Made by a program: the position numbers and the translations under genes
Notes under the pieces: generated by a model
Told to the model about the DNA's origin: nothing
What the model saw: only the letters and a program-made list of their open reading frames with translations
The model's database searches: none
Source: a virus
Lineage: Duplodnaviria > Heunggongvirae > Uroviricota > Caudoviricetes
DNA length: 31,520 nucleotides
IMG/VR virus record: IMGVR_UViG_2917870735_000002
Strand: one strand, 5' to 3'
In this document: positions 297 through 7,321 of the stretch, one piece after another
How positions within the stretch are numbered: the stretch's first letter is position 1
Layout of the letters: each line of letters starts with the position of its first letter

Positions 297-1337
297 CTAA
301 GCTGTCGCGACATTTTTGCGACATTTTAAGGGGTTAAGTCGCACGGCATCTTCAAGGTGGCTTGGGGCGAAATGGGCATAACGCATTGTCATAGTGATGT
401 CAGCGTGGCCGAGAATTTTTTGCAGAACCAGAATGTTTCCGCCGTTCATCATAAAGTGGCTGGCAAATGTATGGCGCAGTACATGGGTAAGCTGGCCGGA
501 GGGGAGTTCAATGCCTGCACGTTCCAGAGCAGAGCGGAAAGCGTTGTAGCAGGGCTTGGGGAACAGAGCGCCTTTTGTTTCAGGTAATTCGGACAGAAGT
601 TCATCATCAAGGGGAATTGTTCTGTTGCGCTTCCCTTTGGTTTTGACGAACGTGACTTTACCCCCGGCGATCTGGGAGCTTTTCAGCGTTGCCGCCTCAT
701 TCCACCTTGCGCCGGTAGCAAGGCAGATTTTGACAACTAATTCTAGGTACTTAACTTTACTTCGTTTGCATTCCAGTAAAAGCCGATCAATTTCTTCGGT
801 AGTGAGGAAAGCCATTTCGGTTTCATCAGTACGATACTGTCTGACGTTTTCTAGTGGGTTGGGTGCTGACCATTCACCAATCCGTTTCAGCTCGTTGAAC
901 ATAGCCAGGAAGTAAGCATGTTCAAGGTTCATAGTTTTCGGGGAAACCTTAGATACTCTGTTGGTACGGGCATAATGCCCATCCAGCCTTTTAGCGCGGT
1001 AGGCTGTGAACAACTGGGCATTAAATTCTGTGGCCAGCGGGAATCCCATGCATTCCGCCGCCCAGGTCATAGCATTTTTACGCTTTTCGCCATTGCTCAA
1101 AGCTACGCCGTGGCGTTCATACCACATGTTGATTAGGTCGCTTAGAGTACGGAGGTCTTTACCCTCGCCAAGCCAGGGGGAGTTCTCCACTTGCTGAAGC
1201 GTATAGTTCTCGTAGGCCAGGGCTTCGCCTTTTGTAGCGAATTTTTTACGAATACGCTTACCGGCTTTACCATTGCTTCGATCCACCGTGTAGAAATCGG
1301 CAATCCACTGGCCATTTGTTAATTTTCTTACAGACAT
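297..1337 (-). CDS. int: tyrosine integrase, P2 Int family
   Basis: 346 aa. N-terminal GKxGKRIRKKF arm-binding motif; catalytic region LATGARWNEA ... HVLRHTFASHF ... LGHADITMTMRYAHF (R, H-x-x-R, Y) as in P2 Int from memory. 3' end faces the left flank, as in P2 where int reads towards attP. Confidence 0.93.
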   Translation of the reverse strand: MSVRKLTNGQWIADFYTVDRSNGKAGKRIRKKFATKGEALAYENYTLQQVENSPWLGEGKDLRTLSDLINMWYERHGVALSNGEKRKNAMTWAAECMGFPLATEFNAQLFTAYRAKRLDGHYARTNRVSKVSPKTMNLEHAYFLAMFNELKRIGEWSAPNPLENVRQYRTDETEMAFLTTEEIDRLLLECKRSKVKYLELVVKICLATGARWNEAATLKSSQIAGGKVTFVKTKGKRNRTIPLDDELLSELPETKGALFPKPCYNAFRSALERAGIELPSGQLTHVLRHTFASHFMMNGGNILVLQKILGHADITMTMRYAHFAPSHLEDAVRLNPLKCRKNVATA

Positions 1338-1340
1338 AGC

Positions 1341-1910
1341 TTAGCTGTTTAAAATGCGTTGTTTTTGCTGCTGAAATTCTTCTTCAGTAAGAATGCCTTC
1401 TGCTTTCATTTCAGCCAAACGTTCAATTTTATCCATGACATCATCAAATGAAGATTTTTCGTTGGAGCTTGTAGGAGCGGTGATAACTTGTGGCTTGTCC
1501 AGACTATTCCTTGTCTCATTAACAAGGTTGGTAAAAGGAATTACGGAGGATTTTATAACGTTTTTTATGGTGTAATTCTGTCCGCTTGTTGAAATCATTA
1601 TCTCACCAAATATCAGTCCAGTCTTTCCGCCAACGCTTACAATGTTACGAAGGCTAATATCGACCTGCTTAACACCAAATATCATCCCTTTATCGAGGAA
1701 GATAACGCGTTGGTTAGTTAAAGTTATTAACCAGGTGTTGCCATCCATCATACCGCTTACTATGCCAAGCGGTTCCTCGCCGGTGTTTAAAACTTCGGGA
1801 AGATGAAAAAATTCTTTTTTTGTACCAAATGGCGTATCTGAAACAGCGGCGGACAATCGTTTCATTTCTACTTTTAATTGGTCTTTAGATGCAGTCTTGT
1901 AATCTATCAT
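1341..1910 (-). CDS. cargo protein with PH-like beta-rich core and SHOCT-like C-terminus; function unknown
   Basis: ORF 1341..1979 trimmed to ATG at 1910 (MIDYKTASK...) with AAGGA about 8 nt upstream. C-terminal IERLAEMKAEGILTEEEFQQQKQRIL resembles SHOCT; central LITLTNQRVIFLDKG...GLIFGEIMISTSG resembles bacterial PH-like domains. Visibly AT-rich versus neighbours. Lies 14 bp after cI stop and 3 bp before int start, so co-transcribed with the repressor. Confidence 0.7.
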   Translation of the reverse strand: MIDYKTASKDQLKVEMKRLSAAVSDTPFGTKKEFFHLPEVLNTGEEPLGIVSGMMDGNTWLITLTNQRVIFLDKGMIFGVKQVDISLRNIVSVGGKTGLIFGEIMISTSGQNYTIKNVIKSSVIPFTNLVNETRNSLDKPQVITAPTSSNEKSSFDDVMDKIERLAEMKAEGILTEEEFQQQKQRILNS

Positions 1911-1924
1911 TATAATTTTCCTTA

Positions 1925-2503
1925 TTATTTTATAGTTAAGATAATACGACCTAAAATTTTTATATCTTCGATAGCGCAATCAAATGCCATCCCAACGCCA
2001 CTCACTCGAACTTTGCCTACGGGGATGCGCGTAAGGGTTCTCACACTTGTTTTTCCTTCAATTTCAACTAACCAATCATCGTCGTAAACTTCGGGAAAGT
2101 GTTGATCAACAATGTACTGCATTGCGTTGTCAATCACACAGATTGGATTCTGTGGTAAAGGCTTACCAGGTAAAAAAGTAACCTTATCGAGCATTAGCAA
2201 ACCGGAATCATAGAGTTTTCCGTCCACAATCTTCTTACGCGGCAGTTTCATGATGTCTAATTCGTCATCGTTAAACTTTCTTCCTTGCCCAGTCGCAAGC
2301 CATTCCAGAGTTGCTCCCGTTTCAGCCATGCATCTAACAACGATATCTGCTGGAAAAAAATCCCTCTTGTAGCGATTAGCCAGGCTGCTACTTGCTATAT
2401 CAAGATGTTCGGCCAGGGCTAATTTTGTGTTGAAACCATACGCCTGGATGACTCTGTCCAAGACTTCTGATCCGCCATGAGAAAATTCAATTTGTAGCTT
2501 CAC
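1925..2503 (-). CDS. cI: immunity repressor, phage 186 CI-like (192 aa)
   Basis: GTG start at 2503. N-terminal helix-turn-helix-like segment (GFNTKLALAEHLDIASSSLANR). Length matches the 192-aa 186 CI as I recall. Position between int and a divergent Cox/Apl-like gene. Confidence 0.8.
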   Translation of the reverse strand: MKLQIEFSHGGSEVLDRVIQAYGFNTKLALAEHLDIASSSLANRYKRDFFPADIVVRCMAETGATLEWLATGQGRKFNDDELDIMKLPRKKIVDGKLYDSGLLMLDKVTFLPGKPLPQNPICVIDNAMQYIVDQHFPEVYDDDWLVEIEGKTSVRTLTRIPVGKVRVSGVGMAFDCAIEDIKILGRIILTIK

Positions 2504-2534
2504 GAAAATTTTTCCTTGAAATCTTTCTCAAAGC

Positions 2535-2546
2535 GAGTTTAAACTC
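2535..2546. promoter_or_regulatory. 12-bp perfect palindrome GAGTTTAAACTC in the immunity switch region (candidate operator)
   Basis: Verified base by base; 32-43 bp upstream of the cI start, between divergent cI and apl-like genes. Confidence 0.4.
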
Positions 2547-2583
2547 TGCTTTGTAGGTTTAAGTGAATATTGACAGTTACAGC

Positions 2584-2601
2584 CCTGTATTACCGTACAG
2601 G
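2584..2601. promoter_or_regulatory. dyad CCTGTA-N6-TACAGG (candidate operator) beside a TTGACA -35-like hexamer
   Basis: 6-bp perfect inverted arms with 6-bp spacer; TTGACA at 2570-2575 just upstream; about 20-40 bp before the apl-like start. Confidence 0.35.
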
Positions 2602-2622
2602 TTGACTAATGGAGTTTGCCTT

Positions 2623-2844
2623 ATGCGTCCGAGCATTACAATCATCATACCGGAACCTTACCTGCCTTTAGACGAATATTGCCGTCGTACTGGTACAAAC
2701 AAAGAAACTGCCAGAAATCTGATCGAATACGGGAAATTGCCCATTAAACCTAAGGGTAAGCAGAAGAAAGGCCTGGTTGAGGTCAACATGGCCGCGCTAA
2801 CCATTCAGGCTTTAAGTGAATGTGATATTTCACTTAACGCGTAA
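2623..2844 (+). CDS. Apl/Cox-like excisionase and transcriptional regulator (73 aa)
   Basis: ATG at 2623 with GGAG 8 nt upstream (the track ORF from 2563 begins at GTG). Small basic protein (KPKGKQKK), first gene of the rightward operon divergent from cI, as for 186 apl and P2 cox. Assigned by position and size. Confidence 0.55.
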   Translation: MRPSITIIIPEPYLPLDEYCRRTGTNKETARNLIEYGKLPIKPKGKQKKGLVEVNMAALTIQALSECDISLNA

Positions 2845-2874: not shown

Positions 2875-3378
2875 ATGTTTGATTACCAGATCTCTAAACA
2901 TGCGCGATTTGATGCGGCTTGCCGAGCATTTGCAATTGAGCACAATCTTGAAGATGTGGCTGTTGCCGTTGGTATAAGGCCGCAGATCCTGCGCAACAAA
3001 CTAAATCCAGCGCAACCGCACCGTTTAACATGCGATGAGCTTATATCCATTACGGATTACACCGAAGATGCACGTTTACTGGATGGGATGTTAAGCCAAA
3101 TTAACTGCCTGCCATCCGTGCCTGTGAATAATGCCACTGAAGGCAACATGCAACTGTGTGCTCTTAGCGCCACTGCGTGCGTGGGGGCGATTGCTGGGGA
3201 AGCCGTATCAACTTGCCATATGACTGCCGCTCGTCGTACTCAAATTCTGGATCGCGCCCGCGATGCAATTCGTAGCTTATCCGTGCTGGCTTATACCGTG
3301 GAAAGTCGTTTTCACTCTACGCCCGTCCTGGCCGCTGCGGTAGCGCTGGTCACAATCAATGCCACCGGCCTGATATGA
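2875..3378 (+). CDS. CII-like lysogeny-establishment regulator (167 aa)
   Basis: ATG 2875 with GAGAGG 6 nt upstream. Size and position (directly after apl-like gene) match 186 CII (about 169 aa as I recall). HTH-like segment LEDVAVAVGIRPQILRNKLN. Confidence 0.55.
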   Translation: MFDYQISKHARFDAACRAFAIEHNLEDVAVAVGIRPQILRNKLNPAQPHRLTCDELISITDYTEDARLLDGMLSQINCLPSVPVNNATEGNMQLCALSATACVGAIAGEAVSTCHMTAARRTQILDRARDAIRSLSVLAYTVESRFHSTPVLAAAVALVTINATGLI

Positions 3379-4967: not shown

Positions 4968-6989
4968 ATGATGTTGGCCATAAAGGAACACTTCTATGTT
5001 GTCGATACGTGGCGGCGTGAAACTTTCGCATCTTGCATACCGGCAGACGCGACAATCACAGAACGCCGTTTGTGGGCTGTAAATCCGCAGGATTATGAAT
5101 GGAGAGTCCGGTACCTGCATGAGATACCCGACTGGTTAGCCGGGTATTTTGGCCGTCGTTACGAAAAGCTGTTTGCTGGTCGTGACGGGCGTTGTCGTGC
5201 CAATACATTCCTGCGCCAGACTATCGGCGGGAGTGTATTGCCACGTCTGCGCAAAGTGGCTGCGCGTTACTCGCTGGCCGCTGACGCTGCCGATCTTCCT
5301 TTTGGTAAGTCGCTGGCGCGCTTGCCGTCACTAGACCGTCCTGATCTTAAAAAACTGGCTGGCCAGGTATCTGGCTGGATTTCCCAGTCACTTTATGACT
5401 TCACCGAACAGTTTGACTCCAGCACTGACGACGCCAGAGAGCTGCATCGCCGCACCTTGGAATCATACCGCCATCTTTGCGCGGGTTGCCTGATGCTGAA
5501 TAACCAGCCGCCGTACTGGGCTGAACATGAGGCCAATGAAGGTCAACTGGAAATGCGTAAGGCGGAATCCGGGATACTGCGCATGATGGCGCCGGAATGG
5601 TGGTACCTACGTCTTAAACGTGCGCGTGATATGCAGCGCGAACATATGGCCATCGCGGTGGGACAGGTACAAAAAGCGGCCAGCGCTTATGTATCCCGCA
5701 AAACACTGGACGAATGGATAGACCAGAAAAAGCGGAATCTGGAGTTCTTTAAAAAGTTTGATCTGCTGAATGATGAGGGGCTGCGCATTGCACTGGACAG
5801 CATGGTGCACCGCAGCGTTGCAAATCCGGCGATCCGTCGATGTGAACTAATGGTAAGAATGCGAGGGTTTGAAGATATGGCCAATGAAGAAGGGCTGGCC
5901 GGTGAGTTTTACACCATCACCGCGCCATCACGTTTCCACGCAGTGCACAGCAAAGGTGGCTTTGTATCGCAATGGGATGGATGTACACCGCAGGATACCC
6001 AGCGCTATTTATGCGGCGTATGGGCAAAAGCACGCGCAGCGATCTCGCGTGCGGGTATTCATGTATTTGGGTTTCGGGTTGTTGAGCCACACCATGACGG
6101 GACACCGCACTGGCATATGTTGCTTTTTATGCGTCTGCAGGACGTGGACACGGTACGCGATATTCTTTGCTATCACGCCAGAATTACCGATTCTGAGGAA
6201 CTGCAATCTGAAAAGGCGCTTAAGGCACGTTTTCACGTTGAAGCTATCGATCCCGACAAAGGTTCAGCCACGGGCTACATCGCGAAATACATTTCAAAAA
6301 ATATTGATGGTTTTGCGTTGGATGGTGAGCAGGACGAAGAAACCGGCGAAAACCTGCGTGATATGGCTAAGTCCGTTTCTGCATGGGCTTCACGCTGGCG
6401 CATTCGTCAGTTTCAGCAGATTGGTGGTGCGCCGGTAACCGTCTGGCGTGAGCTGCGTCGGTTGCGGGATCTGGTGCTGACAGATCGCAGAATGGATGCG
6501 GTTCTGGCCGCTGCTGATGTTGGCGATTGGGCTGCATACACCCAAGCACAGGGTGGCGCACTGATTGCCCGCCGTGATCTGGTTGTTCGTCTGGCCTATG
6601 AAATTACGGAACAGGGCAACGAGTACGCAGAGGACGTGCAGCGCGTACAGGGGGTTTATTCTCCTTTGGTTCCTGATTCGGAAGTTTGCACCCGTCTGGT
6701 TAAGTGGCAAAAGGTTGCGAAGTTGGCCGAAGCGCCAGCGGAGGCGGGGTTTTCTGGCGGCAACGCCGCCCCTTGGAGTTCTGTCAATAACTGTACGGAG
6801 GGGGGAATCCTCAGACGGTTAAAACTGGAATTATGCAGTCGGGGTTTTAACGGTTCTAATGAAGAAATAGCCATTCTCCTACGGGGTAGTGGTTTGATGT
6901 TTGGCCAAGGGGGACTGGTTTACCGTAATGGGTGGCTTAAAGAGATTCAAAACGAGCCATTAAACGAGTTATGGCCGGGGTGGGTCTAG
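4968..6989 (+). CDS. A: replication initiation protein A (rolling-circle nicking endonuclease, P2 gpA family)
   Basis: 673 aa; ATG 4968 with GAGG upstream. His-hydrophobic-His motif (HHDGTPHWHMLLF) and tyrosine/lysine motif (TGYIAKYISKN) typical of rolling-circle initiators. Size comparable to 186 A and P2 A from memory. Confidence 0.85.
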   Translation: MMLAIKEHFYVVDTWRRETFASCIPADATITERRLWAVNPQDYEWRVRYLHEIPDWLAGYFGRRYEKLFAGRDGRCRANTFLRQTIGGSVLPRLRKVAARYSLAADAADLPFGKSLARLPSLDRPDLKKLAGQVSGWISQSLYDFTEQFDSSTDDARELHRRTLESYRHLCAGCLMLNNQPPYWAEHEANEGQLEMRKAESGILRMMAPEWWYLRLKRARDMQREHMAIAVGQVQKAASAYVSRKTLDEWIDQKKRNLEFFKKFDLLNDEGLRIALDSMVHRSVANPAIRRCELMVRMRGFEDMANEEGLAGEFYTITAPSRFHAVHSKGGFVSQWDGCTPQDTQRYLCGVWAKARAAISRAGIHVFGFRVVEPHHDGTPHWHMLLFMRLQDVDTVRDILCYHARITDSEELQSEKALKARFHVEAIDPDKGSATGYIAKYISKNIDGFALDGEQDEETGENLRDMAKSVSAWASRWRIRQFQQIGGAPVTVWRELRRLRDLVLTDRRMDAVLAAADVGDWAAYTQAQGGALIARRDLVVRLAYEITEQGNEYAEDVQRVQGVYSPLVPDSEVCTRLVKWQKVAKLAEAPAEAGFSGGNAAPWSSVNNCTEGGILRRLKLELCSRGFNGSNEEIAILLRGSGLMFGQGGLVYRNGWLKEIQNEPLNELWPGWV

Positions 6990-7019: not shown

Positions 7020-7074
7020 TCAGTAGATGGAAGGAAATTAAATTTCACTATTCGTGCTTTACGGTGTACGGTAT

Positions 7075-7092
7075 ACTGGATACTTATCCAGT
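7075..7092. repeat. 18-bp dyad ACTGGATA-ct-TATCCAGT
   Basis: 8-bp perfect inverted arms, 2-bp centre; preceded by TACGGT-g-TACGGT direct repeat. Confidence 0.6.
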
Positions 7093-7114
7093 CACTATTG
7101 CTTGTGGGGGCTAA

Positions 7115-7321
7115 ATGGATCTTTTGGAGGCGTCGGCACAGCTGGAACGCATTGAGTTATTAGCTAAAATTGCCCATGATTACGAAAGTAACCAGAGAGA
7201 AAAAACAATCGCTTTGGCCTGGATTGGAGAACTTGCGGAAGAGGTTCACAAAATGGTTAGAAAGGAAGGGAAAAGCCCTCATTCTGGGGGCTTTTTAGGC
7301 AGCGGGAGTCACTTTCAGTAA
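7115..7321 (+). CDS. hypothetical ORF (68 aa), doubtful
   Basis: ATG 7115 with weak GTGGGGG upstream; 3' end overlaps the convergent ogr-like gene by 27 nt. May be non-coding. Confidence 0.25.
   Translation: MDLLEASAQLERIELLAKIAHDYESNQREKTIALAWIGELAEEVHKMVRKEGKSPHSGGFLGSGSHFQ

Follow-up and report, generated by a model that had tools for sequence, protein, structure and literature searches.

In P2-like phages, the switch between lysis and lysogeny contains promoters that face each other 40–60 bp apart, with direct-repeat sites for the recombination directionality factor (RDF) located between them and also at the attachment site, att (PMC7498355). In coliphage 186 (Eganvirus), Apl binds direct repeats spaced one helical turn apart, and the sites of both Apl and Cox lie between the switch promoters and at att (PMC7498355). 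Here, these systems are compared with a non-coding interval of 119 bp at positions 2504–2622 of a Caudoviricetes virus record (IMG/VR IMGVR_UViG_2917870735_000002; the whole stretch of 31,520 nucleotides is called the window). The interval is flanked by the GTG start codon of a repressor gene, cI (CAC at 2501–2503), and by the ATG of an apl/cox-like gene (2623–2625), and it is probably the control region of a heteroimmune lysis–lysogeny switch of the 186/P2 type. An initial annotation, made without database searches, had proposed the immunity switch of a 186-like prophage, and this is borne out by the 186-type CI, the Cox/Apl-type gene and the promoter offsets described below. The elements it had listed are all present, namely a 12-bp palindrome, GAGTTTAAACTC (2535–2546), a second dyad with arms CCTGTA (2584–2589) and TACAGG (2596–2601), and a TTGACA hexamer (2570–2575). 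Taken as a whole, the interval is best explained, with a fair degree of confidence, by facing promoters, CI sites on the left, RDF direct repeats on the right and a second dyad that is a stem-loop.

The locus has the gene order of the 186 switch (int–cI/apl–cII–fil). The cI gene (1925–2503, minus strand) encodes a 192-residue immunity repressor with the same two Pfam domains as 186 CI, PF07022 (Phage_CI_repr, E = 2e-25, residues 13–76) and PF16452 (Phage_CI_C, E = 1e-30, residues 87–188), corresponding to the N-terminal helix-turn-helix and the C-terminal oligomerization domain of a 186-type CI. The recognition helix, IASSSLANRY, is near-identical to that of 186 (IASSSLSNRY), whereas the whole protein is only 40% identical to 186 CI (BLASTP, E = 3e-42). 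Relatives start at the same codon, with an N-terminus of the form M(K/N)LQI(E/D)FS and, in several of them, ATG at this position, which supports the GTG start proposed in the initial annotation.

The rightward gene (2623–2844, plus strand) encodes a 73-residue protein which, by profile and model comparison, is a Cox/Apl-type regulator, predicted to act as a winged-helix RDF of the Cox/Xis type and as a repressor. It matches phrog_575 (‘Cox-like excisionase and repressor’, E = 3e-27) in an alignment that begins at residue 1, and the profile of its family matches P2 Cox (4LHF; hmmsearch, E = 0.004). An AlphaFold model built with database homologues (pLDDT 74) has 4LHF as its best Foldseek match in the PDB (probability 1.0, TM 0.61), followed by Pukovnik Xis and RdfS excisionases, so that the small winged-helix fold expected of Cox and Xis proteins is found here as well. 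P2 Cox, the best match by both profile and fold, shares only about 21% identity with the protein, and the partner repressor in the window is a 186-type CI instead of the P2 C protein; nevertheless, the same dual role would be expected, as RDF and as switch repressor acting through direct repeats between convergent promoters (PMC7498355). No BLASTP similarity was found between the 73-residue protein and 186 Apl. Since phrog_575 aligns from residue 1 and the sequence 5′ of ATG 2623 shows indels in relatives that are not multiples of three, the apl start is placed at this ATG, in agreement with the internal start suggested previously. A Shine-Dalgarno sequence, GGAG (2611–2614), is located 8 nt before it, inside an invariant block, GGAGTTTGCC.

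Promoters were located by a consensus scan and by positional comparison with the 186 GenBank record, in which pR, pL and the CI and Apl sites are annotated. The sole sigma-70-like site returned by the scan of 2400–2950 was TTGAAA-18-TAAACT, the predicted lytic promoter pR (2516–2545, plus strand; −35 at 2516–2521, 18-bp spacer, −10 at 2540–2545 and +1 near 2552). Its −35 and −10 begin 13 and 37 nt from the cI start, compared with 15 and 38 nt in the annotated 186 pR, and other CI classes have TTGACA-17-TAATCT at this position. The lysogenic promoter pL is predicted, from positional homology with 186 and from conservation, at 2641–2613 on the minus strand (−35 TTGTAA at 2641–2636, 17-bp spacer, −10 CAAACT at 2618–2613, +1 near 2606). 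Its offsets are those of the annotated 186 pL, with the −10 ending 5 nt before the apl ATG and the −35 at ATG+13 to +18, and the −10 falls within the block GGAGTTTGCC, which also contains the apl ribosome-binding site. We infer from these positions that both promoters fire as predicted. They face each other with starts about 54 bp apart (62 bp in 186), a predicted separation, with pL placed by homology, that falls within the 40–60 bp range of P2-like phages. The arrangement had been described as divergent; this is correct for the genes, but by homology with 186 the promoters are convergent.

About 160 related loci were gathered via searches with CI and the Apl-like protein. All of them carry a 186-type CI, 52–93% identical to that of the window, and they split into classes according to the CI recognition helix. 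The left part of the interval (to about 2568, including the cI start, pR and the surroundings of the 12-mer) is wholly different between CI classes, whereas the right 55 bp or so are common to phages of different classes. Arms of the CCTGTA/TACAGG type were found with seven different CI helices, and the CI helix of the window was found with three different types of arms. Since the left half tracks the CI class and the arms do not, the palindrome belongs to an immunity-specific module and the second dyad lies outside it. The switch alone adds little to knowledge, being a heteroimmune member of the well-studied 186/P2 design; what is new is that an immunity-specific module (cI with the pR operators) and a shared module (RDF boxes, pL and apl) recombine independently.

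The shared module contains three direct repeats at an exact spacing of 10 bp on the plus strand, with the consensus ATATTGCC (ATATTGMC) in alignment A2, which comprises 44 distinct sequences. Box 1 (ATATTGACA/ATATTGAC, 2567–2575) includes the TTGACA hexamer. Box 2 (TTACAGCCC/TTACAGCC, 2577–2585) is weak in the window and reads TATTGCC or TATAACC in relatives, and box 3 (GTATTACCG/GTATTACC, 2587–2595) is made up of the end of the left dyad arm and the loop. A possible fourth box, AGGTTGAC (2599–2606, plus strand), is out of phase; it corresponds to conserved columns 43–51 of A2 and appears as GGTTAAC in relatives. A position-weight matrix derived from the three phased boxes in the 44 relatives was then run along both strands of the entire 31.5-kb window. 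The switch itself, at 2567, holds the highest-scoring array (26.0), and the second best, with 20.4 (next 16.0), is located at 263–294 in the att arm, where ATACTGCC-ATACTCAC-ATATTAAC follow each other in 10-bp phase on the minus strand and end 2 nt short of the stop codon of int. That arrays of the att arm likewise terminate in ATATTAAC speaks for a fourth box at the switch.

The pattern of one array at the switch and another at int is reproduced in six related prophages, four of which (L005, L007, L008 and L010) have different integrases. The second array is beside int in L005, L007, L008 and L003, near int with one open reading frame (ORF) between in L010, and close to the int stop in L165. 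In ESSI2_ev015 and the Yersinia phage vB_YenM_324, the switch and att arrays consist of their own box variants, GAATGTTG and GAATATTA. In L076 (IMG/VR UViG_2731957711_000008), a 10-bp tandem duplication, CCATTATTGC, upstream of apl makes the interval 129 instead of 119 bp long and supplies an additional in-phase box, so that box number varies naturally, and sub-lineages with other Apl variants carry other 10-bp repeats, for example AAATAGAnA and AGTATTGAGT. Direct repeats about one helical turn apart are found, as for known RDFs, between the switch promoters and at att, a placement that is predicted here and annotated in 186. Because the array recurs beside int, as documented for Apl and Cox, the three or four repeats are read as putative operators of the Apl-like protein, by analogy with these two. 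In 186 there are seven Apl boxes instead of three or four, and the consensus ATATTGCC differs from the P2 cox box of the Pe–Pc region. With its 10-bp phase and its occurrence at switch and att, it offers a usable operator consensus for a widespread, uncharacterized family of Cox-like RDFs of Enterobacterales prophages. As a separate observation, TTTAGACGAATATTGCCGTCGTAC inside apl (2667–2690, codons for LDEYCRRT) resembles the switch segment TTTAAGTGAATATTGACAGTTAC and has the third-best RDF-box score (15.4); it may be an extra RDF box or a coincidence of conserved coding sequence.

The second dyad (2584–2601, plus strand) is superimposed on box 3, the last in-phase box, and is not itself an operator. 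Judging from its pattern of variation, it is most likely an RNA stem-loop, CCTGTA/TTACCG/TACAGG, in the apl leader of the predicted pR transcript (about +33 to +50). Among about 110 distinct relatives, nearly all retain the dyad, though not its sequence. Seven pairs were tested in A2: 86% of the stem pairs are formed, compared with 11–44% when the 3′ partner is slid, and double changes occur at every one of the seven (60 cells, compared with 20 ± 3 in shuffles). Pair 28–41 is UA in 24 sequences, GC in 16, AU in 2 and CG in 2 and is never broken, while pair 29–40 is GC in 25, AU in 17 and UG in 1. RNAalifold recovers the same stem core of five pairs. Base pairing is maintained beyond both the slid and the shuffled controls, as in a structured cis-acting RNA. 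Around 20 stem variants were found across both locus sets (CCTGTA, CCGATA, CCTATA, CTGACA, CGGATA, CGTGTA, TGAATG, TGAACT, TGAGCG, TGAGTG, TGAGCA, TGAATA and TGAGTA among others), all with a 6-nt loop and located 38–43 nt before the ATG. Single-sided changes in the inner five pairs occur in three lineages (L050, L079/84/87 and L121), and all of them give G.U on the plus strand and none A.C.

Since the arms vary while the Apl-like protein is nearly invariant (88–99% identical across the first set of loci), and since the att arrays lack the dyad, selection appears to act on pairing and not on a recognized sequence. The stem has a predicted stability of −7 to −9 kcal/mol and ends 9 nt before the apl ribosome-binding site and 5 bp before the predicted pL start. 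No Rfam family matches the switch region, and no intrinsic terminator overlaps either dyad. With low confidence, the stem may serve mRNA stability or apl translation, or RNA polymerase pausing over pL. The 186 record has no annotation of a short 6-bp stem-loop that covers the last in-phase box. When the 186 leader was folded, no equivalent short hairpin appeared; the only stem obtained is long, extends over the Apl sites and is not significant (z = −0.18 against shuffles). The 186 pR leader (L001, 1580–1620) does contain an 8-bp inverted repeat, CAATTGAT...ATCAATTG, which spans several Apl operators.

A second covarying hairpin, TTAAGTGAA-N8-TTCACTTAA, with a 9-bp stem and an 8-nt loop, is formed by the last codons of apl (2812–2837, plus strand), with a predicted stability of −12.4 kcal/mol and z = −4. 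Its paired synonymous Ser codons are AGC/TCG in 61 distinct sequences, AGT/TCA in 16 and AGT/TCG (U.G) in 9, and AGC/TCA (C.A) in none; the wobble asymmetry of this hairpin is 11 U.G against 0 C.A. Since U.G is tolerated and C.A never seen, the hairpin is assigned to the RNA of the plus strand. Its end lies about 3 bp short of where the 186 offset places the pE start, and the parallel between the first hairpin with pL and this one with pE is suggestive. Its possible roles, by analogy, are to protect the apl segment of the early mRNA or to pause polymerase over the convergent promoters. A further novelty is a pair of short hairpins in the lytic transcript that compensatory evolution maintains and that lie immediately next to the convergent lysogenic promoters. 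Should they modulate apl expression or transcriptional interference, an RNA-level layer would be added to a switch that has been modelled purely as protein–DNA binding and polymerase collisions. The hairpin arms GTGAA/TTCAC resemble 186 FR half-sites in reverse order. The analogy with FR was dropped because this pair covaries at synonymous sites independently of the CI class.

With regard to CI sites, 5000 dinucleotide-preserving shuffles of the 119-bp interval were used as a composition control. A perfect 12-mer palindrome appeared in 3.2% of them, and at least two inverted repeats (6-bp arms, spacer 0–10) in 11.8%; since composition alone gives weak significance, the non-randomness of these features rests on the comparison with relatives. 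The palindrome GAGTTTAAACTC (2535–2546) overlaps the pR −10 in the immunity-class-specific half, and its core is kept in 13–17 of the 17 phages of the same CI class. In its register, 90% of cells are symmetric over 17 distinct class members. A dyad of two 7-bp arms around 8 bp, GCGRAGT-N8-ACTYCGC in relatives, overlaps it at 2528–2549; the window forms four of its seven pairs, and in relatives 83% are paired, compared with 20–45% in slid controls, with compensatory changes at three pairs. Its geometry of arms plus N8 matches the central inverted repeat of 186 pR, ATCTC-N8-GAGAT. In addition, two copies of an 18-bp direct repeat 59 bp apart bracket the predicted pR (plus strand). The left copy, TTTGTAGCTTCACGAAAA (2491–2508), spans the cI start codon, and the right copy, TTTGTAGGTTTAAGTGAA (2550–2567), lies at pR +1 and has a right end, GTGAAT, that varies with the CI class. 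The consensus within the class is TTTGTAGGTTYAMGRAAG, and the two copies agree at 16 of 18 positions in L139. These repeats, as candidate CI sites, may belong to the operator set, while the central CI site is best sought in the 12-bp palindrome or in the 7+N8+7 dyad that overlaps it.

On sequence grounds these are all candidate operators, and the flanking CI operators of 186 itself are also degenerate (PMC3675496). No further copy of either dyad with up to two mismatches was found near the switch, and the 186 FL/FR inverted repeat, TTCAC-N5-GTGAA, does not occur inside cI; distal CI sites of the FL/FR type, which in 186-type switches lie about 300 bp away, were not found here. GTGAA/TTCAC pentamers at 2499, 2563, 2816 and 2829 were considered as CI half-sites, in view of the helix in common with 186, and were rejected for being in the opposite order to FL/FR.

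In the proposed mechanism, pR (2516–2545) would fire rightward into apl–cII and the early genes, and pL (2641–2613) leftward into cI–int. The left half, to about 2568, would hold pR together with sites for the 186-type CI repressor. The right half would be the shared module, in which the direct repeats between the two start sites would be operators of the Cox/Apl type, and the same protein would also bind the array next to int for excision. The second dyad would form in the pR transcript, within the apl leader, with pairing rather than sequence under selection.

Other explanations of the second dyad have to be weighed against this one. The initial annotation suggested that each dyad is an operator of its own, for example for CI and for Apl/Cox; spelled out, this model has a dimeric Apl/Cox protein and takes TTGACA for the −35 of a promoter in the interval. 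Both dyads are real, and the second does lie between pR and pL, where 186 Apl binds, but the model as a whole is very unlikely. RDFs of the Apl/Cox/Xis type bind phased direct repeats (PMC7498355), which are present here and, without the dyad, at att; the comparison with 186 that had been recommended gives matching promoter offsets, but the Apl sites of 186 are direct repeats and not a second dyad. Moreover, the 20 or so arm sequences covary freely next to a near-invariant Apl-like protein and bear no relation to the CI class, and an R/K change in its putative recognition helix is independent of arm type. As for TTGACA, it is located downstream of the predicted pR start, has no −10 partner at 16–18 bp, and is present at that column in only 5 of 44 distinct relatives, where TTGCCT is the commonest form; the consensus scan returned pR alone, and the hexamer is part of box 1. 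What survives of the two-operator proposal is its first half, since the palindrome lies over pR as in 186 and is plausible for CI.

Even less credit is given to the dyad as a LexA box (CTGT-N8-ACAG) that would link the switch directly to DNA damage. The segment CCCTGTATTACCGTACAGGT fits the core and, scored with a heterology-index matrix derived from 21 SOS boxes of E. coli, ranks in the top 0.013% of window positions, yet its index is 12.7–13.3, against 0.4–9.9 for the 21 reference sites. The commonest variant in relatives scores 13.1–15.5 and the others (CGAT/ATCG, GAATG/CATTC and more) exceed 25, so CTGT/ACAG is swapped for other complementary arms. LexA sitting at pL +5 to +22 would also block the repressor's own promoter in the lysogen. 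For these reasons the LexA box was rejected and LexA binding at the switch is considered unlikely; the induction route of 186 is represented elsewhere in the window, where a far better SOS box (7074–7093) stands in front of a Tum-like gene. The hairpin could instead act in the leftward RNA, starting about 5 nt into the pL (cI) transcript and stabilizing it, with the apl 3′ hairpin doing the same for pE. In both cases the hairpin stops 3–5 bp short of a predicted +1 (about 2606 for pL; about 2840 for pE, from the 186 offset), and the minus-strand fold retains the hairpin in the minimum-free-energy and centroid structures. However, every single-sided change that is G.U on the plus strand is A.C on the minus strand (three lineages for the first hairpin, 11 against 0 sequences for the second), and this reading seems improbable. 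It is similarly doubtful, and slightly more so, that both hairpins are pause signals in the pR transcript that park RNA polymerase on pL and pE and strengthen transcriptional interference, with a parallel in phage lambda, where an RNA hairpin (tR1) in the lytic transcript is also located just upstream of a convergent lysogenic promoter, PRE (PMC6593788). Pause-enhanced occlusion is so far documented only for tR1 over PRE (PMC6593788). The window hairpins have no U-tract or terminator, unlike tR1, and pausing here is hypothetical; on this view, the stem over the last Apl box could also couple Apl occupancy to the pause.

The palindrome may likewise be no operator, its symmetry arising simply from the −10 (TAAACT) together with a TTTAAA core, with CI binding elsewhere, for example at the 18-bp repeats. 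This is somewhat unlikely, though less so than any of the alternatives for the second dyad. In the 12-mer, compensatory changes are absent and the deviations found in relatives affect the left arm alone; conservation is stronger in the 18-bp repeats, whose right copy differs at its right end from one CI class to another. On the other side, the annotated CI-binding region of 186 covers pR, with an inverted repeat between −35 and −10, and the overlapping 7+N8+7 dyad does have compensatory changes. A CI operator over the pR −10, with CI bound at the palindrome, is therefore regarded as plausible on sequence grounds.

Several observations weigh against the interpretation of the interval preferred here. 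Since the right arm of the 12-mer doubles as the −10 and stays unchanged while the deviations fall on the left arm, its symmetry could be incidental. A search for distal FL/FR-like copies of the dyads with up to three mismatches gave only chance-level matches. With 7 of 12 positions matching the consensus, pL is weak and scores too low to be called by the promoter scan. How the att array is oriented with respect to the switch array varies from one integrase group to another, and for the window it is ambiguous. The assignment of the stem to the plus strand depends on only three independent wobble events. L006 and the sub-lineages with other box types lack the stem, so the switch can do without it.

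The best SOS box in the window, TACTGGATACTTATCCAGTC (7074–7093, index 6.7), overlaps a promoter-like TATACT. It is followed by a 68-residue ORF (7115–7321, phrog_698) with 34% identity over 32 residues to the N-terminus of the 186 Tum antirepressor. By analogy with the p95–tum arrangement of 186, where an SOS box also precedes tum after the replicase gene, the segment 7074–7321 looks like an SOS induction module directly after the replicase gene (4968–6989).

The start of the window corresponds to the end of a 186-like prophage. The integrase gene int (297–1337, minus strand) has its stop codon at 297–299, and cII (2875–3378) lies downstream of the 73-residue apl-like gene. Between int and cI, a gene with a bPH_3 (bacterial PH) domain and a SHOCT domain is inserted (1341–1910, minus strand). 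In the closest E. coli relative, L002, cI directly abuts int and this gene is missing; since cI adjoins int there, the inserted gene is probably a moron or cargo gene. The Yersinia phage YenM_324 likewise has a hypothetical gene between int and cI. In the att arm, the segment 130–262 beside mntS hardly differs from the corresponding arm in E. coli strain 573. It includes an IHF-like sequence, TATCAATAAGTTG (249–261), and a block, AAAAACAATAACTTACAG (approximately 225–242), that is also conserved in ESSI2_ev015, and these may be arm sites of Int or sites for IHF.

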